The notes: generated from the sequence alone by a model not told the origin. Positions 3,289 to 24,695 are shown, counted from the first letter of the stretch. The stretch: DNA of 64,000 bases from Escherichia coli (GCF_001677475.2 NZ_CP015229.1), one strand, 5' to 3'. Program-made: numbers and translations.

Positions 3289-4203
3289 CTATTCCAGTTC
3301 TTGTCGACATGGCAGCGCTGTCATTGCCCCTTTCGCCGTTACTGCAAGCGCTCCGCAACGTTGAGCGAGATCGATAATTCGTCGCATTTCTCTCTCATCT
3401 GTAGATAATCCCGTAGAGGACAGACCTGTGAGTAACCCGGCAACGAACGCATCTCCCGCCCCCGTGCTATCGACACAATTCACAGACATTCCAGCAAAAT
3501 GGTGAACTTGTCCTCGATAACAGACCACCACCCCTTCTGCACCTTTAGTCACCAACAGCATGGCGATCTCATACTCTTTTGCCAGGGCGCATATATCCCG
3601 ATCGTTCTGTGTTTTTCCACTGATAAGTCGCCATTCTTCTTCCGAGAGCTTGACGACATCCGCCAGTTGCAGCGCCTGCCGCAAACACAAGCGGAGCAAA
3701 TGCTCGTCTTGCCATAGATCTTCACGAATATTGGGATCGAAGCTGACAAAACCTCCGGCATGCCGGATCGCCGTCATCGCTGTAAATGCGCTGGTACGCG
3801 AAGGCTCAGCAGACAACGCAATTGAACAGAGATGTAACCATTCGCCATGTCGCCAGCAGGGCAAGTCTGTCGTCTCTAAAAAAAGATCGGCACTGGGGCG
3901 GACCATAAACGTAAATGAACGTTCCCCTTGATCGTTCAGATCGACAAGCACCGTGGATGTCCGGTGCCATTCATCTTGCTTCAGATACGTGATATCGACT
4001 CCCTCAGTTAGCAGCGTTCTTTGCATTAACGCACCAAAAGGATCATCCCCCACCCGACCTATAAACCCACTTATTCCGCCTAATCTGGCGATTCCCACCG
4101 CAACGTTAGCTGGCGCACCGCCAGGACAAGGCAGTAGCCGCCCGTCTGATTCTGGCAAGAGATCTACGACCGCGTCCCCTAAAACCCACACTTTGGCTGA
4201 CAT
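3289..4203 (-). CDS. cscK: Fructokinase (PfkB/ribokinase family)
   Basis: 304-aa ORF with PfkB-type N-terminal GDAVVD and C-terminal GAGDAF motifs; in csc cluster. Confidence 0.85.
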   Translation of the reverse strand: MSAKVWVLGDAVVDLLPESDGRLLPCPGGAPANVAVGIARLGGISGFIGRVGDDPFGALMQRTLLTEGVDITYLKQDEWHRTSTVLVDLNDQGERSFTFMVRPSADLFLETTDLPCWRHGEWLHLCSIALSAEPSRTSAFTAMTAIRHAGGFVSFDPNIREDLWQDEHLLRLCLRQALQLADVVKLSEEEWRLISGKTQNDRDICALAKEYEIAMLLVTKGAEGVVVCYRGQVHHFAGMSVNCVDSTGAGDAFVAGLLTGLSSTGLSTDEREMRRIIDLAQRCGALAVTAKGAMTALPCRQELE

Positions 4204-4308
4204 TTTTTTCCCTTAGATTCATCTGACTTACGCATAGTGATAAACCTCTTTTTCGCAAAATCGTCATGGATTTACTAAAACATGCATATTCGATCACAAA
4301 ACATCATA

Positions 4309-4320
4309 GTTAACGTTAAC
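4309..4320. promoter_or_regulatory. Perfect 12-bp palindrome GTTAACGTTAAC in cscK-cscA divergent promoter region; candidate CscR operator (copy 1)
   Basis: Read directly in sequence; self-complementary; second identical copy 64 bp downstream. Confidence 0.5.
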
Positions 4321-4372
4321 ATTTGTGATATTCATCGCATTTATGAAAGTAAGGGACTTTATTTTTATAAAA

Positions 4373-4384
4373 GTTAACGTTAAC
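4373..4384. promoter_or_regulatory. Perfect 12-bp palindrome GTTAACGTTAAC; candidate CscR operator (copy 2)
   Basis: Identical to 4309-4320; lies about 25 bp upstream of cscA start codon. Confidence 0.5.
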
Positions 4385-4409
4385 AATTCACCAAATTTGC
4401 TTAACCAGG

Positions 4410-5852: not shown

Positions 5853-5859
5853 CATAATA

Positions 5860-6861
5860 TCAGGTGGAACAACGGATCAACAGCGGGCAAGGGATCCGCG
5901 TCACTCTTCCCCCTTCACGACCTTCAATAATATGCAATGCAGCTTCCCGCCCGATAATGTCATGTGGAAGCTGAATTGTGGTCAGCGGCGGTAAAAACAG
6001 ATGCCCGACGCCAACCAGATTATCAAAGCCCATTACGGCGACATCCTGCGGGATACGTACCCCCTTCGCCAGGAGAACCTGATAAGCGACAAAGGCTGCG
6101 CGATCGTTACCACATATCAGAACATCAAAATCTGGTTTGCCAGATTGGAAGTGGGCATTGAGTAAACTTGCGAGATCGGTGTAGTGATCATCACCTGTTG
6201 CCATGTGAAATTGTTTCACCTCAGCCAGATCTCGTCCAGCATCACGCCAGGCCTGCTCAAATCCCTGCCGACGATACCCTGTTGCCAACGCACTTTCCGG
6301 TAGCCAGAAGCATAACGGTTGACGATAGCCCGCCGCGAGCAAATGCTGTGTTGATTCATATTGTGCAGTGTAATCATCAGGGATATAACTGGGTAACACT
6401 GGGTCATCCGCCACACAGTTCGCCAATACAATATTTTCACCATACAGAGACTCAGGCAGCGTGATATGTCGCAGCCCCATTGTAGTATAGATAATGCCAT
6501 CCGGACGGTGGGCAAGCAGCTGACGTGCCGCGCGGGCAGCGTCATCTTCAGAAAAAATATTGATTAAAAAACTATTCCAGCCGAACTCGCTGGCGGTTTG
6601 CTCAATGGCAAGCAGAATATCAACAGAGAAAGGAGTGGTAGCAGTGTCCTGCGCCAGCACGGCGAGAGTCGACGGCTTACGTCCTTGAGCGCGCATCTTA
6701 CGGGCGGAAAGATCAGGAACATAATTCAGGGTCTGGATTGCCTGCAATACGCGGTCACGCGTTGCAGGACGCACAGATTCTGCATTATGCATCACCCGGG
6801 AGACTGTCATCATCGACACTCCCGCCAGGCGTGCGACATCCTTTAATGAAGCCATACCCAT
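5860..6861 (-). CDS. cscR: LacI-family transcriptional repressor of csc genes
   Basis: HTH (MASLKDVARLAGVSMMTVSRVMHN) then periplasmic-binding-protein-like sugar domain; 397-aa ORF in track is probably 5'-extended, start placed at internal Met (6861 or 6855). Confidence 0.85.
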   Translation of the reverse strand: MGMASLKDVARLAGVSMMTVSRVMHNAESVRPATRDRVLQAIQTLNYVPDLSARKMRAQGRKPSTLAVLAQDTATTPFSVDILLAIEQTASEFGWNSFLINIFSEDDAARAARQLLAHRPDGIIYTTMGLRHITLPESLYGENIVLANCVADDPVLPSYIPDDYTAQYESTQHLLAAGYRQPLCFWLPESALATGYRRQGFEQAWRDAGRDLAEVKQFHMATGDDHYTDLASLLNAHFQSGKPDFDVLICGNDRAAFVAYQVLLAKGVRIPQDVAVMGFDNLVGVGHLFLPPLTTIQLPHDIIGREAALHIIEGREGGRVTRIPCPLLIRCST

Positions 6862-7097
6862 GCCGTTTGCCGTAAAACGGGCACTGTAGCAGAAACAGAC
6901 GTCACTGGCGAGATCCAACGATATTCTTAACGCCCTATCACCCGACACGGCAATACAATAAAAAATAACAATAATTGCCGGATAATTGTACCCAATTCCG
7001 CCCCTGTTCTCGCCAACGAGTAACCATATAGGCAAGTAAGTAAAACATGCCAACTGACATCGCCAACCTGGATAAGAAAATATAAATATGGATCATT

Positions 7098-7316
7098 GTG
7101 CTGCCGCTGTATCCCGACATCAGCCCGGAAATTATTGCGATTGCTATCGGTTCAGGTGCGATTGGCTGCACGATCGTTACGGACTCGCTTTTCTGGCTGG
7201 TGAAGCAATATTGCGGCGCTACGCTTAATGAAACATTTAAACACTATACGACAGCGACATTTATCGCTTCAGTCGTCGCTCTGGCGGGCACATTCCTGCT
7301 GTCATTTATCATCTAA
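7098..7316 (+). pseudogene. dsdX: 3' remnant of D-serine permease gene dsdX (GntP family); 5' portion and dsdC absent
   Basis: 72-aa ORF ...[42 protein letters not shown] resembles a GntP-family C-terminus; sits directly upstream of dsdA where dsdX is expected. Confidence 0.65.
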
Positions 7317-7333
7317 GCGCAAAGAGACGTACT

Positions 7334-8770: not shown

Positions 8771-10309
8771 TCACCCAACACCTTTCGCTGTAAACGGCGG
8801 TTTCGCAAACCAAACCAATACCGTAAGTAAGATAAAAGCAATAGCCGCCATACGGAAAATCTCATTTGCAGAAATTGAAAGTGACTGCTGAGTTATTTCA
8901 TTATTAATTTCATTAAGAACCCCTGAAAGCGAACCATAGTATTTATCCATAATTTGTGACGATGAATTAAACACGGGGTTAAATTGATCGATTGTTGCTG
9001 TCAACTGACTATGGTGTAATGATTCTCGGCGTCCCCACAGCGTCATTGTCAACGACGTACCAACGGATCCTGACAAGGTACGAAAAAAATTACTCATACT
9101 CGAGGCATTGGCAAATTTATTATCTGGCAAACCTGAAAACGAAATCGTTGTTAAGGGTAAAAAGAAACAGGCGACGGCGAATCCCTGAAAAAACTGTGGC
9201 AAAATGATGCCTGTAAAATCAATCGTTGGCATAAATGTCACAGAACGCCAGTAATAGCAAACCGCATACATTAAAAAACTAAATGTCACCAACAACCGCA
9301 TATCAATTTTGTTGCCATAACGTCCTATCAAAGGTGATATTAATAGCGGCATGATGCCGATGGGCGCATAGGCAAGTCCGGCCCATATCGCATTATACCC
9401 CATCGTTTCCTGGAGTAACTGCGGCATAAGGACTATCGCCCCAGAGTAAAATAAATACGCGCATGTGATACTCACAATACCAATGGTGAAATTACGGGAC
9501 TTAAACAAACTGAGATCAAGAATCGGATTCTCTGAGGTCGACTCCCAAATGACTAAAGAAATCAGAGAAATAACTGACACTACTGTTAGTATTATTATTG
9601 TACTCGAGTTGAACCAATCCAGATCGCGCCCTTTATCAAGCATTATCTGCAAGCCACCAACACCGAGCACTAACAGGGTCAGTCCTGGTAGATTCATTTT
9701 GACCGGTGAAGTCTCAGTTTCTCTTCCTTTAAGTAAGGTTAAGCATAATGTCAGAACGATAATCCCCATAGGGACATTGATTAAAAATATCCAACCCCAG
9801 CTAAAGTTGTCACAAATATAGCCGCCCAATATCGGCCCACATATCGGAGCGATAATTACGGTCATTGACCATAATGCCAAAGCAAATGTTCTTTTTTCTG
9901 GCGGATAATTCCTTAATAATAAACTCTGTGACAGTGGAATTAACGGCCCCGCCATTAACCCCTGAACGACTCTAAAAAATATCAACACATCAAGATTGGT
10001 CGATAGGCTACACATTAATGAAGACAGCGAAAAAAAGGTTACTGAAAGTAAAAATAATCTTAATTCGCCTATTCTTTGTGCCAGCCTGCCGGTAACAGGG
10101 ATCGCAATGGCATTTGCTACGCCAAACGAGGTGATAACCCAGGTGCCTTCGTCTGTTGATGCTCCCAGAAAGCCAGATATTGTCGGTATTGCGACGTTAG
10201 AAATAGTGGAATCCAACATTTGCATAAACGTCGCTAATGACAATGCAATAGTGACGCACCATAACGTCCCACCGGTTAATGGTGCCGGAGTTGATTTAGT
10301 GATTGCCAT
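8771..10309 (-). CDS. emrY: MFS multidrug efflux pump (EmrB paralog)
   Basis: 512-aa 14-TM-type MFS ORF; 1-bp overlap with upstream emrK suggests translational coupling. Confidence 0.9.
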   Translation of the reverse strand: MAITKSTPAPLTGGTLWCVTIALSLATFMQMLDSTISNVAIPTISGFLGASTDEGTWVITSFGVANAIAIPVTGRLAQRIGELRLFLLSVTFFSLSSLMCSLSTNLDVLIFFRVVQGLMAGPLIPLSQSLLLRNYPPEKRTFALALWSMTVIIAPICGPILGGYICDNFSWGWIFLINVPMGIIVLTLCLTLLKGRETETSPVKMNLPGLTLLVLGVGGLQIMLDKGRDLDWFNSSTIIILTVVSVISLISLVIWESTSENPILDLSLFKSRNFTIGIVSITCAYLFYSGAIVLMPQLLQETMGYNAIWAGLAYAPIGIMPLLISPLIGRYGNKIDMRLLVTFSFLMYAVCYYWRSVTFMPTIDFTGIILPQFFQGFAVACFFLPLTTISFSGLPDNKFANASSMSNFFRTLSGSVGTSLTMTLWGRRESLHHSQLTATIDQFNPVFNSSSQIMDKYYGSLSGVLNEINNEITQQSLSISANEIFRMAAIAFILLTVLVWFAKPPFTAKGVG

Positions 10310-11472
10310 TAAAGTTGTCCATTATGCGAAATAATGTTGCTAATTTCTTTTTCTATCGGACTGGTATCGATAACTAAAGCCTTACTGGTATAAGCCGGCA
10401 TGGACGTCACGGTTGAAGCCAGATCAGGCATCTCAGCAATGTCTTCGTCCTTCGTATCAATAGTTGCAGTCATCGATAAACCAATGCGCAAGGGGTGTTC
10501 CATGAGTTCTTTTGGATCAAGAGAAACTTCAACCGGTACACGCTGAACGATTTTGATCCAGTTCCCTGTCGCATTTTGTGCAGGTAATAAGGAGAACGCA
10601 TTGCCGGTTCCCATATTGATCCCTGTCACCCGGCCATGAAACACAACATTCTCACCATAAAGATCGCTGATAATATTGACCGATTGACCAATCCGTACAT
10701 CCGTGAGTTGTGTTTCTTTAAAGTTGGCATTAACCCACATTTGACGTGCCGGTACGACAGCCATTAACGATTGTCCGGGACTCACTGTTTCGCCGACCTG
10801 AACACTTCGCTGGGCAATATAGCCGGTAACCGGACTCTTAATATCCGTACGTTTAAGCGCCAACCAGGCTTCTTTGGTTGCATCCGCAGCTTCAACGACT
10901 TGTGGCTGACGGTTTAATGGTGTGTTCATTACTAAAGCTTTATTCGCTTTATAAGCCTGGATAGCGGCATTCAATGCCGCTTTGCTACTTATTAACGTAT
11001 CTTTGGTATGCTCCAGCGTTTCTTTTGAAATAACCCCCTGCTTCGCTAACGGCACTCGACGGTTATAATCTTCTAAAGATTGTTGATACTGAATACGTGC
11101 TGAAGCGACTTCGGCACTGTATTGTTTATCCTGTAAGTATAGTTTATTCGTTTGCCGAACAATATTTGCCAGATTATTTTTAGCTTTATTGAGTGCGATA
11201 GTGGCATCAGTTTTATCCAGTGAAACTAAAATGTCACCTTGTCGAACGTAGTTCGTATCTTTATGATTAACTACAGTGACACTACCTGAGACTTGTGCAG
11301 AAATTGGATCTGCATTCCCCGTGACATAGGCGTCATCTGTACTAATCATGTCTTCTAATTCCATTGACCAATAGGCATAGGCACCTGAAAACGCAATAAA
11401 TAAAACTACCGCCAATAAAGAAAAGTATTTTCTTCTGTTAGAATGTTTTTTATTTGAATTAATCTGTTCCAC
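10309..11472 (-). CDS. emrK: Membrane fusion protein (EmrA paralog) of EmrKY pump
   Basis: 387-aa ORF with N-terminal TM anchor and coiled-coil/HlyD-like body. Confidence 0.85.
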   Translation of the reverse strand: MEQINSNKKHSNRRKYFSLLAVVLFIAFSGAYAYWSMELEDMISTDDAYVTGNADPISAQVSGSVTVVNHKDTNYVRQGDILVSLDKTDATIALNKAKNNLANIVRQTNKLYLQDKQYSAEVASARIQYQQSLEDYNRRVPLAKQGVISKETLEHTKDTLISSKAALNAAIQAYKANKALVMNTPLNRQPQVVEAADATKEAWLALKRTDIKSPVTGYIAQRSVQVGETVSPGQSLMAVVPARQMWVNANFKETQLTDVRIGQSVNIISDLYGENVVFHGRVTGINMGTGNAFSLLPAQNATGNWIKIVQRVPVEVSLDPKELMEHPLRIGLSMTATIDTKDEDIAEMPDLASTVTSMPAYTSKALVIDTSPIEKEISNIISHNGQL

Positions 11473-11645
11473 TATTATCTCTCATTTCGCATAGATGAAA
11501 TTTATGAATTGAATGAAAAGAGTATTCATTCTTCATATCAAACACAGTGCATGTGTTGCACATTATCCCAGGAACGTTGGAGGCCTAATTTAAATGAGGT
11601 GCAAAAAAAACAACAGAGGACTAAACCGTGGCTTTTGCAATACAA

Positions 11646-11664
11646 TTCTTACGCCTGTAGGATT
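11646..11664. promoter_or_regulatory. EvgA-box-like inverted repeat (TTCTTACGCCTGTAGGATT) in emrK-evgA divergent intergenic region
   Basis: Matches the EvgA consensus TTCYTACA-N2-TGTARGAA as I recall it; read directly in sequence. Confidence 0.5.
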
Positions 11665-11887
11665 AGTGAGAAGACTTATAGTGCTAATGTGAAACTATAA
11701 ATCATCGGTACAATCCCTGATTTTATTGTTGACATTTCATATATGCCGACTATTTATATGGTATACTTGTCGAATTATCTTAAAGGAAGCTCAAATTTTC
11801 TTATTTTTATTGAGAAAATGAGATGATGCCTTATGTCTGTATTACTACAGGGAGAAGGGAGATGCTTCATTGCAAAGGGAATAATCT

Positions 11888-12502
11888 ATGAACGCAATAA
11901 TTATTGATGACCATCCTCTTGCTATCGCAGCAATTCGTAATTTATTGATCAAAAACGATATTGAAATCTTAGCAGAGTTGACTGAAGGCGGAAGTGCCGT
12001 TCAGCGGGTGGAAACACTTAAGCCTGATATCGTCATCATTGATGTCGATATCCCCGGAGTTAACGGTATCCAGGTGTTAGAAACGCTGAGGAAGCGCCAA
12101 TATAGCGGAATTATTATTATCGTCTCCGCTAAAAATGACCATTTTTACGGGAAACATTGTGCTGATGCTGGCGCTAATGGATTCGTGAGTAAAAAAGAAG
12201 GCATGAACAATATCATTGCGGCTATTGAAGCTGCAAAAAATGGCTACTGCTATTTCCCCTTCTCTCTCAACCGGTTTGTTGGAAGTTTAACGTCCGACCA
12301 GCAAAAACTCGACTCCTTATCGAAACAAGAAATTAGTGTCATGCGGTATATTCTTGATGGCAAGGATAATAATGACATTGCTGAAAAAATGTTCATCAGC
12401 AACAAAACTGTCAGCACGTATAAAAGTCGCCTGATGGAAAAATTAGAATGTAAATCACTGATGGATCTTTACACATTCGCGCAACGTAACAAAATCGGCT
12501 AA
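11888..12502 (+). CDS. evgA: Response regulator EvgA (NarL/FixJ family)
   Basis: 204-aa ORF with receiver domain and C-terminal LuxR-type HTH. Confidence 0.9.
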   Translation: MNAIIIDDHPLAIAAIRNLLIKNDIEILAELTEGGSAVQRVETLKPDIVIIDVDIPGVNGIQVLETLRKRQYSGIIIIVSAKNDHFYGKHCADAGANGFVSKKEGMNNIIAAIEAAKNGYCYFPFSLNRFVGSLTSDQQKLDSLSKQEISVMRYILDGKDNNDIAEKMFISNKTVSTYKSRLMEKLECKSLMDLYTFAQRNKIG

Positions 12503-12506
12503 TCAC

Positions 12507-15500
12507 ATGAAGTTTTTACCCTATTTTTTTCTTCTCTGTTGTGGTCTTTGGTCGACCATAAGTTTCGCAGACGAAGATTACATCGAATATCGTGGCATCA
12601 GTAGTAACAACCGTGTCACACTTGATCCACTACGTCTGAGCAACAAGGAATTACGTTGGTTAGCGAGCAAAAAAAATCTTGTGATTGCAGTACACAAGTC
12701 CCAAACGGCTACGTTGTTGCATACCGATTCGCAGCAACGGGTTCGTGGTATTAATGCTGATTATTTAAATCTTTTAAAAAGAGCGTTAAATATCAAATTA
12801 ACACTCCGGGAATACGCCGATCATCAAAAAGCAATGGACGCGCTGGAAGAAGGTGAAGTCGATATAGTGTTATCACATTTAGTTACTTCGCCGCCTCTTA
12901 ATGATGACATTGCTGCAACCAAACCACTGATAATTACCTTTCCGGCGCTGGTCACCACCCTTCACGATTCAATGCGACCGCTTACCTCATCAAAACCAGT
13001 AAATATTGCTCGAGTAGCAAACTATCCCCCTGACGAGGTAATTTATCAATCATTTCCAAAAGCAACAATTATCTCTTTTACAAATTTATATCAGGCATTA
13101 GCATCCGTCTCAGCCGGACAGAATGATTACTTTATTGGTAGTAACATCATTACCAGCAGTATGATTTCCCGCTATTTCACTCACTCCTTAAATGTAGTGA
13201 AATATTATAACTCACCGCGTCAATATAATTTTTTCTTGACCAGAAAAGATTCAATCATTCTTAATGAAGTACTCAATCGATTTGTTGATGCTTTAACAAA
13301 TGAAGTTCGCTATGAAGTATCACAAAATTGGCTTGATACAGGAAACCTGGCCTTTCTGAACAAGCCATTAGAACTCACTGAACATGAAAAACAGTGGATT
13401 AAGCAGCATCCCGATTTAAAGGTGCTGGAAAATCCTTACTCGCCCCCCTATTCTATGACGGATGAAAATGGCTCGGTTCGGGGCGTTATGGGGGATATTC
13501 TTAATATTATTACCTTGCAAACAGGTTTAAATTTTTCTCCGATCACCGTTTCACACAATATCCATGCTGGAACACAGCTGAATCCCGGCGGATGGGATAT
13601 ATTACCCGGTGCTATTTATAGTGAAGATAGAGAAAATAATGTTTTATTTGCTGAAGCCTTCATAACAACGCCTTACGTTTTTGTCATGCAAAAAGCGCCT
13701 GACAGTGAACAAACATTAAAAAAAGGAATGAAAGTTGCCATTCCATATTATTATGAGCTGCATTCGCAATTAAAAGAGATGTATCCGGAGGTAGAGTGGA
13801 TAAAAGTCGATAACGCCAGCGCTGCATTTCACAAGGTCAAGGAAGGTGAACTTGATGCTCTGGTCGCGACACAGTTAAATTCGCGTTACATGATCGACCA
13901 TTACTATCCTAATGAACTGTATCATTTTCTTATTCCCGGCGTTCCGAATGCATCGCTTTCGTTCGCTTTTCCTCGCGGAGAACCGGAACTTAAGGATATT
14001 ATTAATAAAGCACTGAATGCAATCCCCCCAAGCGAAGTTCTGCGCCTGACGGAAAAATGGATTAAAATGCCCAATGTGACCATTGACACATGGGACCTCT
14101 ATAGCGAGCAATTTTATATTGTTACGACATTATCCGTTTTATTAGTTGGCAGTAGCCTTTTATGGGGATTCTACCTGTTACGCTCAGTTCGTCGTCGTAA
14201 AGTCATTCAGGGTGATTTAGAAAACCAAATATCATTCCGGAAAGCGCTCTCGGATTCCTTACCGAATCCAACTTATGTTGTAAACTGGCAAGGTAATGTC
14301 ATTAGTCATAATAGTGCTTTTGAACATTATTTCACTGCGGATTACTACAAAAATGCAATGTTACCATTAGAAAACAGTGACTCACCCTTTAAAGATGTTT
14401 TTTCTAATGCGCATGAAGTCACAGCAGAAACGAAAGAAAATCGAACAATATACACACAGGTATTTGAAATTGATAATGGCATCGAGAAAAGATGCATTAA
14501 TCACTGGCATACATTATGCAATCTGCCAGCCAGCGATCATGCTGTTTATATTTGTGGTTGGCAAGATATTACCGAGACGCGTGATTTAATTCATGCACTC
14601 GAAGTAGAGAGAAATAAAGCGATCAATGCAACTGTCGCAAAAAGTCAGTTTCTGGCAACAATGAGTCACGAAATAAGAACACCAATAAGCTCCATTATGG
14701 GCTTCCTGGAACTTCTGTCGGGTTCTGGTCTTAGCAAGGAACAACGGGTGGAGGCGATTTCACTTGCCTACGCCACCGGACAATCACTCCTCGGCTTAAT
14801 TGGTGAAATCCTTGATGTCGACAAAATTGAATCGGGTAACTATCAACTTCAACCACAATGGGTCGATATCCCTACTTTAGTCCAGAACACTTGTCACTCT
14901 TTCGGTGCGATTGCTGCAAGCAAATCGATCGCATTAAGTTGCAGCAGTACATTTCCTGAACATTACCTGGTTAAGATCGACCCTCAGGCGTTTAAGCAGG
15001 TCTTATCTAATTTACTGAGTAATGCTCTCAAATTTACCACCGAGGGGGCAGTAAAAATTACGACCTCCCTGGTTCATATGGATGACAACCACGCTGTTAT
15101 CAAAATGACGATTATGGATTCTGGAAGTGGATTATCACAGGAAGAACAACAACAACTGTTTAAACGCTATAGCCAAACAAGTGCAGGTCGTCAGCAAACA
15201 GGTTCTGGTTTAGGCTTAATGATCTGCAAAGAATTAATTAAAAACATGCAGGGCGATTTGTCATTAGAAAGTCATCCAGGCATAGGAACGACATTTACGA
15301 TCACTATCCCGGTAGAAATTACCCAACAAGTGGCAACTGTCGAGGCAAAAGCAGAACACCCCATCACACTACCTGAAAAGTTGAGCATATTAATCGCGGA
15401 TGATCATCCGACCAACAGGCTATTACTCAAACGCCAGCTAAACCTATTAGGATATGATGTTGATGAAGCCACTGATGGTGTGCAAGCGCTACACAAAGTC

Positions 15501-16100
15501 AGTATGCAACATTATGATCTGCTTATTACTGACGTTAATATGCCGAATATGGATGGTTTTGAGTTGACTCGCAAACTCCGTGAGCACAATTCTTCCTTAC
15601 CCATCTGGGGGCTTACAGCCAACGCACAGGCTAACGAACGTGAAAAAGGGTTAAATTGCGGCATGAACTTATGTTTGTTCAAACCGTTGACCCTGGATGT
15701 ACTGAAAACACATTTAAGTCAGTTACACCAGGTTGCGCATATTGCACCTCAGTATCGCCACCTTGATATCGAAGCCCTGAAAAATAATACGGCGAACGAT
15801 CTACAACTGATGCAGGAGATTCTCATGACTTTCCAGCATGAAACGCATAAAGATCTACCCGCTGCGTTTCATGCACTAGAAGCTGGCGATAACAGAACTT
15901 TCCATCAGTGCATTCATCGCATTCATGGTGCGGCTAACATCCTGAATTTGCAAAAGTTGATTAATATTAGCCATCAGTTAGAAATAACACCTGTTTCAGA
16001 TGACAGTAAGCCTGAAATTCTTCAGTTGCTGAACTCTGTAAAAGAACACATTGCAGAGCTGGACCAGGAGATTGCTGTTTTCTGTCAACAAAATGACTAA
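12507..16100 (+). CDS. evgS: Hybrid sensor histidine kinase EvgS (periplasmic binding domains, HisKA/HATPase, receiver, HPt)
   Basis: 1197-aa ORF; H-box SHEIRTP, receiver LIADDHPTNR...DVNMPNMDG, C-terminal HPt. Confidence 0.9.
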   Translation: MKFLPYFFLLCCGLWSTISFADEDYIEYRGISSNNRVTLDPLRLSNKELRWLASKKNLVIAVHKSQTATLLHTDSQQRVRGINADYLNLLKRALNIKLTLREYADHQKAMDALEEGEVDIVLSHLVTSPPLNDDIAATKPLIITFPALVTTLHDSMRPLTSSKPVNIARVANYPPDEVIYQSFPKATIISFTNLYQALASVSAGQNDYFIGSNIITSSMISRYFTHSLNVVKYYNSPRQYNFFLTRKDSIILNEVLNRFVDALTNEVRYEVSQNWLDTGNLAFLNKPLELTEHEKQWIKQHPDLKVLENPYSPPYSMTDENGSVRGVMGDILNIITLQTGLNFSPITVSHNIHAGTQLNPGGWDILPGAIYSEDRENNVLFAEAFITTPYVFVMQKAPDSEQTLKKGMKVAIPYYYELHSQLKEMYPEVEWIKVDNASAAFHKVKEGELDALVATQLNSRYMIDHYYPNELYHFLIPGVPNASLSFAFPRGEPELKDIINKALNAIPPSEVLRLTEKWIKMPNVTIDTWDLYSEQFYIVTTLSVLLVGSSLLWGFYLLRSVRRRKVIQGDLENQISFRKALSDSLPNPTYVVNWQGNVISHNSAFEHYFTADYYKNAMLPLENSDSPFKDVFSNAHEVTAETKENRTIYTQVFEIDNGIEKRCINHWHTLCNLPASDHAVYICGWQDITETRDLIHALEVERNKAINATVAKSQFLATMSHEIRTPISSIMGFLELLSGSGLSKEQRVEAISLAYATGQSLLGLIGEILDVDKIESGNYQLQPQWVDIPTLVQNTCHSFGAIAASKSIALSCSSTFPEHYLVKIDPQAFKQVLSNLLSNALKFTTEGAVKITTSLVHMDDNHAVIKMTIMDSGSGLSQEEQQQLFKRYSQTSAGRQQTGSGLGLMICKELIKNMQGDLSLESHPGIGTTFTITIPVEITQQVATVEAKAEHPITLPEKLSILIADDHPTNRLLLKRQLNLLGYDVDEATDGVQALHKVSMQHYDLLITDVNMPNMDGFELTRKLREHNSSLPIWGLTANAQANEREKGLNCGMNLCLFKPLTLDVLKTHLSQLHQVAHIAPQYRHLDIEALKNNTANDLQLMQEILMTFQHETHKDLPAAFHALEAGDNRTFHQCIHRIHGAANILNLQKLINISHQLEITPVSDDSKPEILQLLNSVKEHIAELDQEIAVFCQQND

Positions 16101-16102
16101 AT

Positions 16103-16138
16103 AGCGGCTCCCACAATATTCAAATGTGGGAGCTATTT
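16103..16138 (+). terminator. Stem-loop after evgS (GCTCCCACA...TGTGGGAGC); putative terminator between convergent evgS and yfdE
   Basis: 9-bp inverted repeat with 9-nt loop read in sequence. Confidence 0.4.
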
Positions 16139-16155
16139 ACCAGCACATCTTACAT

Positions 16156-17301
16156 TTATGATGAGAACTCCTGGCGAATTTGTTCCCCATGCTGGTCGAG
16201 CGTTGCCGCTCCCGGCATAACATGCGGGTCCGCGCAGCCGCTGATTTTTATCGGATTACCCGGCATCATTATTCCCCCGGCTTCAATCAACATATTTCTC
16301 GCCTGAGTTTGTGGCAAATTAATGGCCTCAGCCACACTTAATAACGGCGCGACGGGCACACCAACTTCATGTATTTTGGCTAACCAAACTTCAGCTGCCT
16401 GCGTTTTTAACATCCGCTCAATATATTGTTTAAGAGTAGCCTGGTTTTGTACGCGTAAAATATTGCTGCTAAATCGGGGATCATTAACCAGTTCCGTAAG
16501 CTCCAGTGCCTGGCATAACGCAGAGAAAAGCTTGTCATTACCACAACAAATCGTAATCGGCTTATCCTGAGTATCGAAAACATCAAAAGGTGCCATGTAG
16601 GGATGGCGATTTCCCAGGCGTTGTGGTGACTTCCCTGTCGCAATATATGCCATCAGACCATGCTCCAGAAAACTCAGCGTGGCATCAAACATCGCTATAT
16701 CGACATGCGCCCCTCTCTGGCTCTTTTCGCGGCCATAAAGTGCACTTACTATTCCACTGAATAAATAGACACCGCCACATAGATCCGCAAGAGAAGTACC
16801 AACGCGCACTGGCGGAGCATCAGGGTATCCCGTTTCCATCATTATCCCGCTCATTGCCTGAATGATGGTATCGTAGGCAGGAGCATCTTTTAGCGGACCG
16901 GTATGTCCGAAACCTGACGATGAAGCATATATGAGGCGCGGGTTGATTTCTTGTAACCTTTCCCATGAAAACCCCAGTTTTTCCATTGTACCTGGGCGAA
17001 AATTCTCAGCTAATACATCAGCTTGTTTGAGCATATTTATAAATATACTTTTATCGTGATCATTCTTTAAATCAAGAACCACACTCTCTTTGCCATGATT
17101 AATAAAACTGTAATAGAGTGACTGTCCATCCACATAGGGACCAAATGTGCGGGTATCATCACCATGACCCGGCGGCTCAACTTTAATTACCCTTGCACCC
17201 ATATTACAAAGAAGTTGAGTTCCGAAAGGTCCATTAAGGACATGTGTCATATCGATAACTAATAAGCCTTCAAACGGCCCTTTGCTTTCATTATTTGTCA
17301 T
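16156..17301 (-). CDS. yfdE: Acetyl-CoA:oxalate CoA-transferase (family III CoA-transferase; Frc paralog)
   Basis: Family III CoA-transferase N-terminus; ORF in track (394 aa) likely 5'-extended, start placed at MTNNESKGPFEGLL. Confidence 0.8.
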   Translation of the reverse strand: MTNNESKGPFEGLLVIDMTHVLNGPFGTQLLCNMGARVIKVEPPGHGDDTRTFGPYVDGQSLYYSFINHGKESVVLDLKNDHDKSIFINMLKQADVLAENFRPGTMEKLGFSWERLQEINPRLIYASSSGFGHTGPLKDAPAYDTIIQAMSGIMMETGYPDAPPVRVGTSLADLCGGVYLFSGIVSALYGREKSQRGAHVDIAMFDATLSFLEHGLMAYIATGKSPQRLGNRHPYMAPFDVFDTQDKPITICCGNDKLFSALCQALELTELVNDPRFSSNILRVQNQATLKQYIERMLKTQAAEVWLAKIHEVGVPVAPLLSVAEAINLPQTQARNMLIEAGGIMMPGNPIKISGCADPHVMPGAATLDQHGEQIRQEFSS

Positions 17302-17374
17302 TTGCTTATGCCTTGAAAAAAGCCGAAGGTGAAAAGACACTTCGGCATTTATGTAAAATCAATAACATGATTAA

Positions 17375-18319
17375 TTATGAAACCAGTCGACTGACATAAA
17401 TCCACAAGGGAGCCGTGACGACAAAACCCAGTACGCTCACAGCCAATGACGCTGTACCTGTGCGGGTGTAGACATTAAACCGGCTGGCAATAATGATTCC
17501 GGAGAATGCCGGCGGTAATGCGCCTGCCAGTACCATCATCTGCAAATGTTCGCTGTTCAGATGACATGCCATACCAACGAGAAGCAGCGCCAGTGGCATC
17601 AGAATCAGCTTCAGGAAGGTGTTATAAGCAATTTCGGCACTGAACTCGAATTTATGTGCAGCCAGAGTCAACCCCGCAGCGAATACCGCTACCCCTGAGT
17701 TAGCCTTCGCAATCAGATTAAAGGTTGGGTCCCATGCTGCCGGAATTTTTACCCCAACCAGCACCAGGATCGTTGCCAGAACAGGTGCCCATACTACTGG
17801 CTCCTTTGCCGCAGAAATTAATGCGCTCAGATTACTATTCTTCTTACCATCCGCTCCTGAGGAAGGATTCAGCAAATACAGACCAATAGGAATAGTAATT
17901 GCGTTAACAATAATAGAAATAATTGCTACCACTAAACCTGTTGATACGGAATCACCATAAATAGGATCGAGAACTGCAAACCCCAGGAATCCAATGGTAG
18001 GTGAACCTGCAATTAATGCACATACTGCTGCTTCTGCATGGGTACGTTTAAAAAATTTGTAGCAACCGAACCAGGAGAAAAAGAAACATCCGACAATAAC
18101 CACAAGTGATACAAGGGTCAGACGAGTGTCCGCAAAAATCATTTCCCTGTTTGCCCGGGTAATAGATACAAATAGAGCCGCAGGAAGCGCGTAGTTTAAT
18201 ACCAGTTTATTAAATGCCCGAGCTTGATCTTCTGAAAATGTTTCTCGTCTGCCGCTAAAATAACCCAACAGCATGATTACGATAATAGGCAATAAATCGC
18301 CAATAAAAAATGTTAGCAT
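17375..18319 (-). CDS. yfdV: Auxin-efflux-carrier (AEC) family transporter, putative oxalate/formate-related
   Basis: 314-aa polytopic membrane ORF in frc-oxc operon. Confidence 0.8.
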
Positions 18320-18388
18320 AATAGTATTTCCGATAAGGGTCCCCTCACCATCGCATAATGAGTTGGCAAGAGGAGACGATGTCAGTAT

Positions 18389-20083
18389 TTAATTACCAGC
18401 GACTTGTTTTGGGTTCAGTTTGGTAATATGGCCACTTTCAGTTCCTGCTGCAGGGTCGATGACCACATTAATAATGGTCGGTTTGCGCGACTGAATACCG
18501 GTGGTTAAAGCATGACGAAGTTCATCTGTCGTGGTGACGTTATAGCCAACACCACGAAACGCATCCATTAATTTGTCATACCTTGCATGGTGCAACAGAT
18601 CCGTTGGTGATGGTGCACCAGCGCCACTGAGATCAACACCGTCTCCTCTGTAGATGCCGCCATTATTAAAAATAACGATCGTCACCGGAAGGTTATATCG
18701 ACAAATCGTTTCAATCTCCATCCCACTGAAACCAAAAGCACTATCACCTTCAATGGCGACAACTGGAGAACCAGAGGTCACGCTAGCACCGATGGCATAG
18801 CCCATACCGATGCCCATGACACCCCAGGTACCACAATCCAGACGACGACGAGGTTTATACATATCAATAATATTTCGTGCATTATCCAGGGTATTTGCAC
18901 CTTCATTAACTAAATAAATATCCTGGTTCTCGCGCAATACATCGCGCACAGCACTTAATGCATTAAAGTAATTCAATGGTTGGGTATCTGTACTTAATTT
19001 TTCATGCATTTTTTGTGCATTTTGCTGCTTGTGGATATTTAAAATATCGCGCCACACCAGTGGAGTCGTAAATGTGTTTTGTTTCAATTCTGCCAGCATA
19101 CCTTGCATACTGGATGCAATATCACCAACGACTGGCACTGCAATGGGGCGGTTGCTGTCAATTTCCTGCGGTTCAATATCCAGTTGAATAAACTGTGTAT
19201 CTGCCGCCCATCCTTTTTTACCGTGTGCCAATAACCAATTCAGTCGTGCACCAACAAGCATGACAACGTCAGCATTTGCCAGGGCAAACGAACGCGCAGC
19301 TGCCGCAGAAAGTGGATGCGTATCTTCAAGGATCCCTTTCGCCATAGACATTGGCAGGAATGGAATCTGAGCACTTTCAATAAATTCACGAAGCTGTTCA
19401 TCAGCTTGTGAATACGCCGCGCCTTTGCCAAGGATAATTAATGGCCGTTCAGCTTTTGCTAAAAGCGAAATTGCGCTAGTGACTGACTTCGGGCATGGCA
19501 ATAATGCTGGCGACGGATTTTCAACTTTAACAATCGTGGTTAACGCTTCGTCTTTTTCCATCGTCGCGGCCAGGACATTTGCTGGCAAATCAAGATAAAC
19601 TCCGCCAGGGCGACCCGATACTGAGACCCGGATAGCGCGTGCCAATGCAATGCCAAGATCCTGCGGCTGATTAACGCGGAATGCTGCTTTGGCATACGGT
19701 TTTGCCGCATTCATTTGGTCCAGCTCTTCATAATCACCTTGTTGTAAGTCGACGATCGCGCGGTCGCTGGAGCCGCTAATCATGATCATCGGAAAACCAT
19801 TTACCGTTGCGTTGGCCAATGCGGTCAAACCATTAAGGAATCCTGGCGCAGACACTGTCAGGCAGATCCCCGGTTTTTGGGTAAGAAAACCGCTTGCCGC
19901 AGCGGCATAGCCTGCCGACTGCTCATGACGAAAACCAATATAACGAATGCCTTCCGCCTGGGCATGGCGTGCCATATCCGTCACAGGAATACCTACAACA
20001 CCATAAATAGTGTCAATATTATTCTGTTTTAATGCTTCAACGATGATATGCATACCATCTGTCATTTGAAGTTGATCTGACAT
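18389..20083 (-). CDS. oxc: Oxalyl-CoA decarboxylase (thiamine-diphosphate dependent)
   Basis: 564-aa ORF with TPP-enzyme three-domain architecture (GDSAF...NN TPP-binding motif). Confidence 0.9.
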   Translation of the reverse strand: MSDQLQMTDGMHIIVEALKQNNIDTIYGVVGIPVTDMARHAQAEGIRYIGFRHEQSAGYAAAASGFLTQKPGICLTVSAPGFLNGLTALANATVNGFPMIMISGSSDRAIVDLQQGDYEELDQMNAAKPYAKAAFRVNQPQDLGIALARAIRVSVSGRPGGVYLDLPANVLAATMEKDEALTTIVKVENPSPALLPCPKSVTSAISLLAKAERPLIILGKGAAYSQADEQLREFIESAQIPFLPMSMAKGILEDTHPLSAAAARSFALANADVVMLVGARLNWLLAHGKKGWAADTQFIQLDIEPQEIDSNRPIAVPVVGDIASSMQGMLAELKQNTFTTPLVWRDILNIHKQQNAQKMHEKLSTDTQPLNYFNALSAVRDVLRENQDIYLVNEGANTLDNARNIIDMYKPRRRLDCGTWGVMGIGMGYAIGASVTSGSPVVAIEGDSAFGFSGMEIETICRYNLPVTIVIFNNGGIYRGDGVDLSGAGAPSPTDLLHHARYDKLMDAFRGVGYNVTTTDELRHALTTGIQSRKPTIINVVIDPAAGTESGHITKLNPKQVAGN

Positions 20084-20136
20084 GATTAATAACCTCGAAA
20101 TTTTTATAAATTGGGAGCCAGAAGCCCCCGTTAATA

Positions 20137-21387
20137 TCAGATGGCGTGGTTTTGCTTCATTGCAGCAATTTCATCGTCGCTATAACCCAGCTCCTGCAAT
20201 ACAGCTGCGGTATGTTCACCTAATAGCGGCGCAGCTTTAATATCCGGCGTAAAGGCAGAGAATTTCATTGGACAACCAACTGTCAGATATTTTCCACGCA
20301 ACGGTTGTTCCACTTCAACAACACTGCCACTTTGGCGCAAAGAGGGATCTAGTGAAATTTCTTTCATACTTAAAACCGGTGCGCAAGGAATATCAAACTG
20401 AGTCAAATAGGCCACCGCTTCATGTTTATCAATAGTGACAGTGTATTTTTCGATTTCAGCAAAAATATCGAAAATATGTGGCTGTCGGGCATGGGCTGTA
20501 CTGTATGCCGGATCGGTAATCCATTCTGGTTTGCCGATGGCTTTACAGGTGTTTTCCCAATTTTGCTCCTGAATAGTGAAATAAATATAGGCGTTAGGAT
20601 CGGTTTCCCAGCCTTTACATTTCAGGATCCAGCCAGGCTGACCACCACCACCCGCATTACCACCGCGGGGAACTGCATCACCAAATGTACCATTCGGATA
20701 CTGCGGGTATTCTTCCAGATAACCCAATTTATCGAGACGCTGCTGGTCGCGTAATTTCACGCGGCAAAGGTTCAACACGGCATCCTGCATTGACATAGTG
20801 ACTCGTTGCCCACGCCCCGTTTTTTCGCGATGCAGCAAGGCAGCAAGTAAACCGATCAGCAAATGCATTCCGGTGTTGCTGTCACCCAACGCTGCAGCGC
20901 TTACCAGCGGCGGACCGTCCCAAAAACCCGTAGTAGATGCCGCGCCACCCGCTGCCTGAGCAACGTTTTCATAGGCTTTTACATTCACATAAGGCGAACA
21001 CTCATCAAACCCTTTGATCGAACCAAAAATCAGACGTGGATTGATTTCTTGAATATGCTCCCAGGTGAAGCCCATATGATCAATGGCCCCTGGATGAAAG
21101 TTCTCGACTAAGATATCAGCTTCGCGGATCAGCTTTTCCATTACCTCTTTGCCTTCCGCTGTTTTGGTATTTAATTCAATAGAACGTTTATTACTGTTAA
21201 GCATGGTGAAGTAAAGCGCATCGATATCAGGAATATCTCGCAGCTGGTGACGCGTTACGTCACCAACGCCGGGACGTTCAATTTTAATGACATCAGCGCC
21301 AAACCAGGCCAGCATCTGAGTACAAGATGGGCCAGATTGCACACCGGTGAAATCGAGAACTTTAATTCCTTGAAGTGGAGTTGACAT
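20137..21387 (-). CDS. frc: Formyl-CoA:oxalate CoA-transferase
   Basis: 416-aa family III CoA-transferase ([20 protein letters not shown]...). Confidence 0.9.
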
Positions 21388-21638
21388 AGCAATACCTATT
21401 AGTTAATTAAATATGTGTTAATTTAGCGTTTATTTAAGGCATAACGCCCTCTATAAATAATCCGCAAAATATCGTCGTAGCTGCACTCGATATTTTTAAA
21501 TTACTGTATCAAGTGCTGAAAATCATTTCATCGCTACTTCCAATTCCTTTCTGCATGGTAAGTAGTGAGGACGAAAAGAAGAATATGATAAATATTGGTT
21601 CGCGGTAATCAGAGAGAACCGCGACATTTGTGATGTTA

Positions 21639-21656
21639 TTCTTACAACTGTAAGAA
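21639..21656. promoter_or_regulatory. Perfect EvgA-box palindrome TTCTTACAACTGTAAGAA upstream of frc
   Basis: 18-bp inverted repeat read directly; matches EvgA consensus TTCYTACA-N2-TGTARGAA. Confidence 0.55.
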
Positions 21657-21899
21657 GCGCCGGTGATTGACAGGTAAGGGTATGATTACGCTTTTTAAAG
21701 CGTACCATAAAACATAACATAATAAATGATTTGTGATGACACGGGATTATTGCGGTTTAATTTGAGGAATATAAAATGCGAGTTTATAGCACCGCGAGCG
21801 CCAAATAATTTTATGACCACAACCTGTCGTATTGTGGTCATAAAAAATTGTCGGCTGGAGGGAGTTAAATCCTTTACCTCGATGTACTGCCTGTCAGCA

Positions 21900-22532
21900 T
21901 TAGTTCACAAACAGTGCTTCACTATCGACGATGATTCCATCTTCCGCACCTTTAAGCGCCAGATTTGCCTCGTAGTATTGCTTTTTATCAAGCAGTTTCT
22001 GCGCATCAGCAAGTGCATTACGAGTCTGTTTAAGCGGCATCAGATATTGGTTTTCCATTACGCCAACACCGGCCAGGCGAAGCTCTTCCATTGCGCCCTT
22101 TTTATCCCCTTTCGCCATTTTTTCATTGGCAATTTTTATCGCGGCTTCTTTTTCGGGTGTCGCTACATAACTCTCAGAAATTCCGACAGATGCATTAATG
22201 ACAATATATTGGTCATCATTGAGATTGGTCTTTTTACCTGGCTTAGCGAACTTTGCCCATTCGGTACTGTCATCTGACAACAAAGCGGAAGCTTCATTGG
22301 TCAGTTCTTTTGCCTTTTCTGGATCGCCATGAAACAGAGCCAGGCGCGCTACCTGCACGTCACGCATCGCATATAAACCTTGTTCAGAGATACGCTCTGC
22401 TGCTGCCGTTTTCTGGGTTTGCTGAACTTGCTGAGCTTGCTGTTGTGCCGCTACCGGTGCATTATCAGCAGCCCATACAGTTGAAGATGCCAGAATTGCT
22501 GTGACCATCGTAGCCATAATTAAACGTTTCAT
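21900..22532 (-). CDS. yfdX: Periplasmic protein YfdX (EvgA regulon, function unclear)
   Basis: 210-aa ORF with signal peptide [21 protein letters not shown] and Q-rich/helical body. Confidence 0.85.
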
Positions 22533-22627
22533 ACTTACCTCATTCTTTAACAGTTTTAGAAAACGCCGCCATCATATTGGGTGAGCATGAAATGAGAAAT
22601 CAGAGAGCAACGGTCATTTTGAAAGGG

Positions 22628-22685
22628 TTATCTTACAGTTGTAGTTATTATCGCAAGAAGTATTTTAGTCTTACAATTGTAGGAA
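22628..22685. promoter_or_regulatory. Two EvgA-box-like inverted repeats (TTATCTTACAGTTGTAGTTA and GTCTTACAATTGTAGGAA) in yfdX-ypdI divergent promoter region
   Basis: Both match TTCYTACA-N2-TGTARGAA with 1-3 mismatches; about 100-150 bp upstream of yfdX start. Confidence 0.5.
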
Positions 22686-22827
22686 TATGCTTCCTGTCAC
22701 AGAGAACTATTCTTATGTACCACAAAGAGATGTAATTTATTATATCGATGTAAATATTGATTAATTATATGTAAATACAGCCATAACATCGTACATTCTC
22801 AGTGAACCATTTTCAGGATAACTTTCT

Positions 22828-23103
22828 ATGAAAGTAAACTTAATGCTTTTTAGCTTATTTTTATTGGTCTCTATTATGGCATGCAATGTTTTTGCATTTT
22901 CCATTTCTGGTGGTGGAAGTGAGAGGAGCTATAAAGAGACTGAAAAAACATCAGCGATGACGACAACTCACTCTACAAAATTTCAGCCATCACAGGCGAT
23001 TTTGTTAAAAATGAGAGAAGATGCGCCACCATTAAACCTCACAGAAGAAATCACGCCCACTTATCCGACAAAGGCGAGTTATCTTATTCATCCTTTGCGA
23101 TAG
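22828..23103 (+). CDS. ypdI: Small putative lipoprotein
   Basis: 91-aa ORF; N-terminal signal with Cys (LVSIMACNVFA). Confidence 0.7.
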   Translation: MKVNLMLFSLFLLVSIMACNVFAFSISGGGSERSYKETEKTSAMTTTHSTKFQPSQAILLKMREDAPPLNLTEEITPTYPTKASYLIHPLR

Positions 23104-23179
23104 CGTCTGTCACATGGCAGGTGAACAATCATGTCTGATGCTGATGTGAACACCTGCCCAAATGAGCCATCCTGACCCA

Positions 23180-23422
23180 CTATCGCCTGCCATACCCCAC
23201 CATAAAGCGAATCATCAAGCCACAAGCCGGGGCAAGAAACATAAATATCCCCGTCACCAGTTCATTACCGCCAGTTAACCACATGGTGAAGTAATAAATG
23301 AGTGCAGCGAGGATCACCATGCCGAAGAAAGAAGAGACCGCCGATACCACGTTCAGTACCTGACCGATGTAGCCGCTGACGCAGACAATACACAGGGCGA
23401 GAAACATCCATAAATAAATCAT
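23180..23422 (-). CDS. yfdY: Small inner-membrane protein (DUF2545-like)
   Basis: 80-aa ORF with two hydrophobic helices. Confidence 0.7.
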   Translation of the reverse strand: MIYLWMFLALCIVCVSGYIGQVLNVVSAVSSFFGMVILAALIYYFTMWLTGGNELVTGIFMFLAPACGLMIRFMVGYGRR

Positions 23423-23774: not shown

Positions 23775-24695
23775 ATGTTTCCACAATGCAAATTTTCCCG
23801 CGAGTTTCTGCATCCTCGCTACTGGCTCACATGGTTTGGGCTTGGTGTACTCTGGCTTTGGGTACAGCTTCCTTATCCTGTTCTCTGCTTTCTCGGCACG
23901 CGTATTGGCACAATGGCGCGACCATTCCTGAAACGTCGTGAATCTATCGCCCGTAAAAACCTGGAACTTTGTTTCCCGCAGCATTCTGCTGAAGAGCGCG
24001 AGAAGATGATTGCCGAAAACTTTCGTTCACTCGGCATGGCGCTGGTAGAAACCGGCATGGCATGGTTCTGGCCCGACAGTCGCGTACGTAAATGGTTTGA
24101 TGTTGAAGGGATGGATAACCTTAAACGCGCACAAATGCAAAATCGCGGCGTAATGGTTGTCGGCGTCCATTTTATGTCGCTGGAACTGGGCGGTCGCGTG
24201 ATGGGACTTTGCCAACCAATGATGGCCACCTATCGTCCCCATAATAATCAGCTGATGGAATGGGTGCAGACCCGTGGTCGCATGCGCTCTAACAAAGCGA
24301 TGATCGGCAGAAATAATCTGCGCGGCATTGTCAGTGCACTGAAGAAAGGTGAAGCGGTATGGTTTGCTCCCGATCAGGATTATGGTCGTAAAGGCAGCTC
24401 CTTCGCGCCGTTCTTTGCGGTGGAAAATGTCGCCACAACCAATGGCACCTATGTCCTCTCTCGTCTCTCTGGCGCAGCCATGTTGACCGTAACGATGGTA
24501 AGAAAAGCGGATTATAGCGGATATCGTTTGTACATCACCCCAGAGATGGAAGGCTACCCGGCAGATGAAAATCAAGCCGCTGCCTATATGAACAAGATTA
24601 TCGAGAAAGAGATCATGCGCGCACCGGAGCAGTACCTCTGGATCCACCGTCGCTTTAAAACGCGCCCGGTGGGAGAATCGTCGTTATACATTTAA
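23775..24695 (+). CDS. lpxP: Lipid A biosynthesis palmitoleoyl acyltransferase (cold-induced LpxL paralog)
   Basis: Late acyltransferase family; ORF in track starts upstream (23709), start placed at MFPQCKFSREFLHPRYWL giving about 306 aa. Confidence 0.85.
   Translation: MFPQCKFSREFLHPRYWLTWFGLGVLWLWVQLPYPVLCFLGTRIGTMARPFLKRRESIARKNLELCFPQHSAEEREKMIAENFRSLGMALVETGMAWFWPDSRVRKWFDVEGMDNLKRAQMQNRGVMVVGVHFMSLELGGRVMGLCQPMMATYRPHNNQLMEWVQTRGRMRSNKAMIGRNNLRGIVSALKKGEAVWFAPDQDYGRKGSSFAPFFAVENVATTNGTYVLSRLSGAAMLTVTMVRKADYSGYRLYITPEMEGYPADENQAAAYMNKIIEKEIMRAPEQYLWIHRRFKTRPVGESSLYI

Follow-up and report, generated by a model that had tools for sequence, protein, structure and literature searches.

We analyzed a 64,000-nucleotide stretch of Escherichia coli DNA (GCF_001677475.2, NZ_CP015229.1), here called the window and numbered from its first letter, with attention to the block at positions 11473 to 23422. 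This block carries evgA and evgS, is bordered by emrKY on one side and yfd genes on the other, and contains copies of an 18-bp inverted repeat that matches the binding site (box) of the response regulator EvgA. We consider it highly probable that the region is the EvgS/EvgA acid-sensing two-component locus and that most of the neighboring genes belong to the direct EvgA regulon. The interval is matched in 5,425 of 5,426 complete E. coli genomes, with a best identity of 98.6%, and the lineage of the window is 1.4 to 2.7% diverged from every complete E. coli genome searched (n = 5,426). In the RefSeq annotation of the matching genomes the gene order is emrY, emrK, evgA, evgS, yfdE, yfdV, oxc, frc, yfdX, ypdI, yfdY, and the open reading frames (ORFs) of the window agree with it. 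The gene order and gene identities proposed in a preliminary description of this DNA, made from the sequence alone, are borne out by this annotation and by Pfam. The genes are as follows.

8771 to 10309, minus strand: emrY, MFS efflux pump gene, transcribed away from evgA (ORF, RefSeq annotation).
10309 to 11472, minus strand: emrK, MFS efflux pump gene, likewise transcribed away from evgA (ORF, RefSeq annotation).
11862 to 11891, plus strand: evgL, intact 9-codon leader ORF (MLHCKGNNL), annotated as evgL b4781 in K-12.
11888 to 12502, plus strand: evgA, NarL/LuxR-type response regulator (Pfam Response_reg and GerE).
12507 to 16100, plus strand: evgS, hybrid sensor kinase (RefSeq annotation and Pfam).
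16156 to 17301, minus strand: yfdE, oxalate/formyl-CoA unit.
17375 to 18319, minus strand: yfdV, same unit.
18389 to 20083, minus strand: oxc, same unit.
20137 to 21387, minus strand: frc, same unit.
21900 to 22532, minus strand: yfdX (Pfam YfdX, E = 2.9e-44).
22828 to 23103, plus strand: ypdI, small lipoprotein gene, divergent from yfdX (annotation).
23180 to 23422, minus strand: yfdY (Pfam DUF2545).

The cognate regulator of the boxes is encoded in the window itself, by evgA and evgS, as judged from their Pfam domains, which in EvgS are two periplasmic SBP_bac_3 domains, HisKA, HATPase_c, Response_reg, and Hpt. EmrK has HlyD/CusB-type domains, Oxc has thiamine pyrophosphate (TPP) enzyme domains, and YfdV has Mem_trans. 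Frc and YfdE both match CoA_transf_3 (PF02515) over their full length (E = 4.3e-93 and 4.8e-115, respectively) and are 30% identical to each other over 399 residues (E = 2e-56), the same identity given for this pair in the YfdE structure paper (PMC3720670). They are indeed paralogous family III CoA-transferases, as the preliminary description had proposed. The stop codon of evgL overlaps the evgA start codon (ATGA); evgL couples evgA translation and is repressed by CsrA (PMC11210196).

The consensus for the EvgA box, TTCYTACA-N2-TGTARGAA, is an inverted repeat of two 8-bp half-sites around a 2-bp spacer. Since it had been supplied by the earlier reader of this DNA, we tested it independently. 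When the whole 64 kb is scanned with TTCYTACANNTGTARGAA at a tolerance of up to 3 mismatches, there are exactly four sites, compared with 0.74 expected by chance. All four are intergenic, and they fall in three intergenic regions, 1.2 kb in total, that flank evgAS and the yfd genes. In K-12 this pattern also occurs upstream of three established EvgA targets, safA, ydeP, and yegR. A position weight matrix (PWM) trained only on the K-12 safA, ydeP, and yegR boxes ranks the four window boxes 1st to 4th in the 64 kb, with the next site scoring 9.19, and the numbers of chance matches expected per 64 kb at the four scores, from the highest to the lowest, are 0, 0, 0.01, and 0.225. A weight-matrix scan of this kind had been suggested beforehand, and the four palindromes that it returns lie within 1 or 2 bases of the places first given for them. 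The sites are therefore real, and two of their ends are corrected, to 11646 to 11663 (not 11664) and to 22630 (not 22628) to 22647. The four boxes, listed without a strand, are as follows.

11646 to 11663: box of the emrK-evgA region, TTCTTACGCCTGTAGGAT, 2 mismatches, PWM score 18.46.
21639 to 21656: frc-proximal box, TTCTTACAACTGTAAGAA, perfect palindrome, PWM score 25.05, the top site of the window.
22630 to 22647: proximal box of the yfdX-ypdI region, weak, ATCTTACAGTTGTAGTTA, 3 mismatches, PWM score 13.1.
22668 to 22685: distal box of the yfdX-ypdI region, strong, GTCTTACAATTGTAGGAA, 1 mismatch, PWM score 20.64.

The frc-proximal box is 252 to 269 bp upstream of the frc ATG, and the proximal and distal yfdX-ypdI boxes are 38 bp apart, center to center.

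The boxes are conserved within E. coli. Seven E. coli lineages with 95.5 to 98.5% identity to the window were aligned with it (8 lineages in all). In this alignment the frc-proximal box shows no variation at any of its 18 positions, and the first substitutions are two bases outside it. In both yfdX-ypdI boxes every half-site position is invariant, the only changes inside the boxes are in the 2-bp spacer, and 7 to 8 bp between the two boxes form the most variable stretch of that region. The weak, 3-mismatch box at 22630 is supported by this pattern, because its half-sites are invariant while its spacer varies. In K-12, the four boxes are base-for-base identical to those of the window. A scan of genome contigs with the degenerate box gave, among the matches listed, mostly chance matches in unrelated phyla, and one useful Escherichia genome (L029/L030). 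In this diverged genome the emrK-evgA site (L029) is a perfect consensus despite heavily different flanks.

Two other observations concern the box itself. In E. coli YZLc23-1 (L008, positions 1446 to 1778), a 38-bp tandem duplication comprising one box and the inter-box spacer gives the yfdX-ypdI region a third EvgA box; unequal exchange involving the two original boxes is its presumed origin. A Sphaerochaetaceae metagenome-assembled genome, RUI458, has at least five perfect TTCYTACANNTGTARGAA matches on three contigs (L031, L032, and L033), two of them 83 bp apart, which is far above the chance level of about one per genome among the matches listed in other genomes; these matches may represent a repeat element, or else an operator bound by a LuxR-type regulator.

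Other genera were reached through YfdX homologs and the contigs that carry them, and the islands compared with window positions 11888 to 22532 were L131 (10001 to 20615), L132, L133/L134, L137, L139, and L140. The whole yfdX-frc-oxc-yfdV-yfdE-evgS-evgA module is present in Yersinia alsatica, in L137, in L139, and in a Klebsiella variicola-type contig. The Y. alsatica EvgA and EvgS proteins are 94% and 81% identical to those of the window, and IS1, a resolvase, and an integrase border the module there. In Buttiauxella, yfdX lies between gadBC-hdeAD-like genes and evgSA, with the gadBC/hdeAD-like genes replacing the oxalate genes, and the portion of EvgA encoded on the contig is 74% identical. 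In E. coli, L030, Y. alsatica, L137, and L139, the frc box is found 252 to 277 bp from the frc start codon, a distance that is kept even in L139, where the yfdX-frc intergenic region is 784 bp long. A 52-bp block consisting of the frc box and ~35 bases toward frc hardly varies among E. coli, Y. alsatica, and L139; divergence is seen toward yfdX and elsewhere in the intergenic region. Orthologs of the proximal yfdX box are present at the same distance from yfdX in L131, L133, and L139. The Hafnia yfdX (L135) is linked neither to evgAS nor to frc, has no box, and is uninformative.

The Klebsiella (variicola-type) KvgAS-type island (L133/L134) resembles the window in having yfdX-frc-oxc-yfdV-yfdE beside an evgS-like kinase gene, and in having a degenerate box whose distance from yfdX is the orthologous one; after this box comes CTCTGAT, at the offset that it also has in the Buttiauxella and Y. 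alsatica yfdX promoters. It differs in its half-site, which is TTCCGACA / TGTCATCC, and in its yfdX-frc gap, which is 123 bp long and has no box. This arrangement suggests that a single promoter may serve all five genes of the Klebsiella-type island. Because the Klebsiella-type gap lacks a box, an internal frc promoter is a feature of one branch of these islands.

Compared across promoters, the boxes share one register. We read 18 promoter instances toward the regulated gene (frc in 5 lineages, yfdX in 6, safA, ydeP, and yegR in K-12, emrK in 2, and ypdI in 2), and 18 of 18 have the same arrangement: the box, 5 nucleotides (nt), a weak -35-like hexamer nTnCAn, 17 nt that usually end in TC(T/C), and a [T/G]AT hexamer at offset 29 to 34. 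If this last hexamer is the -10 element, the box would be centered at -49.5 and would abut the -35 region, a geometry that would fit an activator contacting RNA polymerase directly. The elements that this register picks out at frc and yfdX are as follows.

21605 to 21633, minus strand: predicted frc core promoter, with the -35-like hexamer TCACAA at 21628 to 21633 and GATTAC in the -10 position at 21605 to 21610.
22596 to 22601, minus strand: GATTTC, the hexamer in the -10 position of the predicted yfdX core promoter, at offset 29 to 34 from the proximal box, the offset at which CTCTGAT occurs in the Klebsiella-type, Buttiauxella, and Y. alsatica yfdX promoters.

By this register the frc box would be placed to activate frc, whose transcription would start near 21598 and yield a ~210-nt leader; the ydeP box is similarly far from its gene, 243 bp from the ATG. 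At yfdX, it appears to be the weak proximal box that fits the register, and the strong distal box stands another 38 bp upstream. On the plus strand, the distal box has a ypdI-side hexamer, TATGTA (TATATA in K-12), at offset 29 to 34 (22714 to 22719), and the 11646 box is in register with an emrK-side hexamer. In the best local alignment of the frc and yfdX upstream regions, the frc box pairs with the proximal yfdX box and the 32 bases downstream of it; the alignment score is 32, compared with 20.5 ± 2.6 for the null, and 1 of 500 shuffles reached it. This likeness suggests common descent or common constraint.

Published expression data agree with the positions of the boxes, which lie upstream of frc, yfdX, emrK, and ypdI, all induced on EvgS activation. 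In the evgS-constitutive S600I mutant, the log2 induction values are 8.37 for frc (the highest), 6.97 for yfdX, 6.59 for oxc, 6.16 for yfdV, 5.03 for emrK, and 2.75 for ypdI (PMC4283999, Table S4), and according to the same study every known direct target has EvgA sites and no other induced gene does. On the authority of Masuda & Church 2003, Mullins et al. 2013 state that EvgA-bound inverted repeats induce "yfdX and yfdWUVE," and the legend to their Fig. 2, citing the same work, has EvgA binding the yfdX and yfdW repeats (PMC3720670). Coinduction of ypdI with yfdX, yegR, ydeO, and emrK has been reported (PMC5811628). Based on this coexpression and on the promoter register, ypdI is a probable direct EvgA target through the distal box. 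No box was found upstream of yfdY in the TTCYTACANNTGTARGAA and PWM scans of the 64 kb, and yfdY is absent from the induced-gene list (PMC4283999). The block should end at ypdI for these two reasons, so the proposal of a contiguous EvgAS-controlled block holds through ypdI and is not supported for yfdY, a neighbor that had been included in it.

Downstream of yfdX there is a hairpin that resembles a terminator.

21809 to 21845, minus strand: terminator-like hairpin of 15 pairs, located 55 to 91 bp beyond the stop codon of yfdX; no other site in the region resembles a terminator as well.

Its predicted folding energy is -25.4 kcal/mol (z = -6.5). It is almost unchanged in Y. alsatica though the surrounding DNA has diverged, and strain EC17GD31 (L007) carries a compensatory change of an A-U to a G-C pair within it (ATGaCC...GGtCAT to ATGgCC...GGcCAT). 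Because this strong and conserved hairpin follows yfdX, we regard frc-oxc-yfdV-yfdE as a separate unit. An internal EvgA-dependent frc promoter, apart from the yfdX promoter, had been proposed from the frc-proximal box; it is supported by the published induction, by the conservation of the frc box together with the post-yfdX hairpin, and by the shared register.

We also considered a structured cis-regulatory RNA in the frc leader (~210 nt) and rejected it. The E. coli sequence alone folds with z = -2.9, but the region matches no Rfam family, and the RNAalifold consensus of 7 sequences is only -2.73 kcal/mol, essentially no conserved structure. A second, 7-bp hairpin lies at 21600 to 21626 (TCGCGGT...ACCGCGA), just downstream of the predicted frc -10 position. 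Its K-12 variants, three transitions that could be due to chance, pair only as G-U wobbles on the plus strand.

Taken as a mechanism, these features would work as follows. Phosphorylated EvgA, a NarL/LuxR-type dimer, would bind each box, 5 bp upstream of the weak -35-like hexamer and 28 bp upstream of the [T/G]AT-type hexamer, and would activate sigma-70 RNA polymerase at promoters that are poor, AT rich, and covered by H-NS. The 11646 box would drive emrKY and probably evgLAS too, and the perfect 21639 box would drive frc-oxc-yfdV-yfdE. The weak proximal box at 22630 would drive yfdX, probably with the aid of the strong distal box at a distance of 38 bp, and the distal box at 22668 would drive ypdI on the other strand. 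A more specific form of this proposal is that each box in the divergent yfdX/ypdI region is canonical for one of two back-to-back promoters, with ypdI a direct target and yfdX needing both boxes, and that the frc promoter is a duplicate of the yfdX-proximal module (the box and ~32 nt) that is present in the Escherichia/Y. alsatica type of island and absent from the Klebsiella type. We put this forward tentatively, as somewhat short of an even chance.

Several points weigh against activation by EvgA from boxes in a fixed promoter register. The hexamers in the -10 position are poor sigma-70 matches (GATTAC and GATTTC; several lack the final T). The -49.5 geometry and the ~210-nt frc leader both derive from the register, and the case for ypdI consists of coexpression and geometry. 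EvgA binding at the yfdX and frc repeats is cited at second hand, through PMC3720670. The hairpin after yfdX ends in AAAAUUAUUU, an imperfect U-tract and not a clean U run, which makes some read-through from yfdX into frc likely. Finally, a genomic SELEX (systematic evolution of ligands by exponential enrichment) study predicts a different frc promoter, TTTATA-18-AATAAT, at window positions 21775 to 21746, ~100 bp upstream of the box (PMC3946193), and our own sequence analysis predicts the same site.

This other promoter belongs to the best surviving alternative, which we nevertheless judge to be unlikely, namely that EvgA acts mainly as a counter-silencer that displaces or remodels H-NS so that constitutive promoters, such as TTTATA-18-AATAAT, can fire. 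The base composition is compatible with it: the G+C content is 0.40 to 0.45 in the block from 8771 to 23103, 0.32 to 0.36 in its intergenic regions, and 0.50 to 0.52 just outside (23800 to 24599), and the low G+C content of the emrYK-evgAS-yfd block fits both horizontal acquisition and the reported H-NS binding. The SELEX study found sigma-70 holoenzyme peaks in the frc/yfdX and emrK/evgA spacers, both flagged as H-NS bound, and there the holoenzyme binds without activator (PMC3946193). The weakness of the -10-position hexamers beside the boxes points in the same direction. However, a fixed box-to-hexamer register at 18 promoters in several genera is what direct recruitment predicts, not what position-independent antisilencing predicts, and the sequence upstream of the box in which the SELEX study places its promoter shows poor conservation in Y. 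alsatica. Recruitment and counter-silencing are not mutually exclusive, and the H-NS flag leaves room for a counter-silencing component.

Much less probable is that yfdX-frc-oxc-yfdV-yfdE form one operon transcribed from the yfdX promoter only, with the frc palindrome serving as an auxiliary distal site that loops to the yfdX promoter, as a roadblock, or as a promoter for an antisense RNA on the plus strand. The genes are often written yfdXWUVE, the U-tract of the hairpin is imperfect, the Klebsiella-type island appears to have a single promoter, and a palindrome by itself gives no orientation, with TATGAT- and GATTAC-like hexamers found on the plus-strand side as well. In contrast, conservation around the frc box is asymmetric, with the ~35 nearly invariant bases on the frc side only, and the distance from the box to frc stays constant even where the intergenic region is 784 bp long. 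Moreover, frc is induced more strongly than yfdX (PMC4283999), and PMC3720670 describes yfdX and yfdWUVE as separately induced. We rejected a plus-strand promoter at the frc box, since its hexamers are present but that side is not conserved in Yersinia. Chance matching in AT-rich intergenic DNA, which has some force only for the 3-mismatch site at 22630 (0.225 expected per 64 kb), is practically dismissed by the other three sites (≤0.01 expected), by the confinement of all four to 1.2 kb of intergenic DNA by evgAS, by half-sites that are invariant next to spacers that vary, and by orthologous sites in other genera.

The remainder of the window provides some context for the lineage. Over positions 1 to 64000, no stretch longer than ~1.4 kb exceeds 98.6% identity to any of the 5,426 complete E. 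coli genomes, and between 23423 and 46000 the ceiling is 97.3%; the only exact match among these genomes is the 415-bp emrK-evgA spacer. The window therefore comes from a lineage absent from that set, possibly a Shigella or an early-diverging E. coli branch. Within 1454 to 7330, a csc sucrose-utilization cluster is located downstream of a tRNA-Arg gene (1454 to 1528), with genes for an MFS transporter (1970 to 3217), a kinase (3289 to 4203), cscA (4410 to 5852), and a LacI-type regulator (5860 to 7053). It stands in place of dsdC and most of dsdX, and the K-12 CPS-53 prophage is absent. This layout is common to about half of complete E. coli genomes.

The closest known system is the EvgA regulon of K-12 (ydeP, safA-ydeO, yegR, emrKY, yfdX, and frc/yfdW), which has the same 18-bp repeat, the same register, and the same induction response as the window. 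There is no essential difference between the two, and the boxes are unchanged despite the divergence of the window. At NarL "7-2-7" sites, an inverted repeat with a 2-bp spacer is bound by a dimer of GerE/LuxR-type helix-turn-helix domains. EvgA is like NarL in its pair of Pfam domains and in the 2-bp-spaced inverted repeat, but the half-sites differ (TACYYMT for NarL and TTCYTACA for EvgA), as do the signal and the target genes. BvgA and EvgA are both NarL-family response regulators of unorthodox kinases with multistep phosphorelays, and both recognize inverted heptad or octad repeats, of the TTTCCTA type for BvgA and the TTCYTACA type for EvgA. The Bordetella fha and ptx promoters have both high-affinity and low-affinity BvgA sites, an arrangement that the strong upstream box and the weaker promoter-proximal box of yfdX resemble. 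The BvgAS regulon concerns virulence, whereas that of EvgAS concerns acid and drug resistance. BvgAS of Bordetella is homologous to EvgAS (PMC9496106).

Earlier publications already cover the EvgAS regulon and the EvgA box, the EvgA-dependent induction of yfdX and of yfdWUVE as separate units, and the paralogy of YfdW and YfdE. The finding is therefore correct but ordinary, and its main use is as a positive control in which a real regulon is recovered from sequence alone. It is accompanied by modest refinements, which are the fixed box-to-promoter register, the probable link between EvgA and ypdI, and the occurrence of the evgAS-yfd island outside Escherichia and Shigella. Possibly new are the analysis of the register, with its implication of ypdI as a direct target, an apparent duplication as the origin of the frc promoter, and the EvgAS-yfd orthologs in other genera. 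A recent review states that EvgAS is confined to E. coli and Shigella (PMC9496106). The EvgAS orthologs and yfd genes of Yersinia alsatica, Buttiauxella, and others contradict this statement, and they are evidence for a mobile evgAS-yfd island that extends beyond Escherichia and Shigella.

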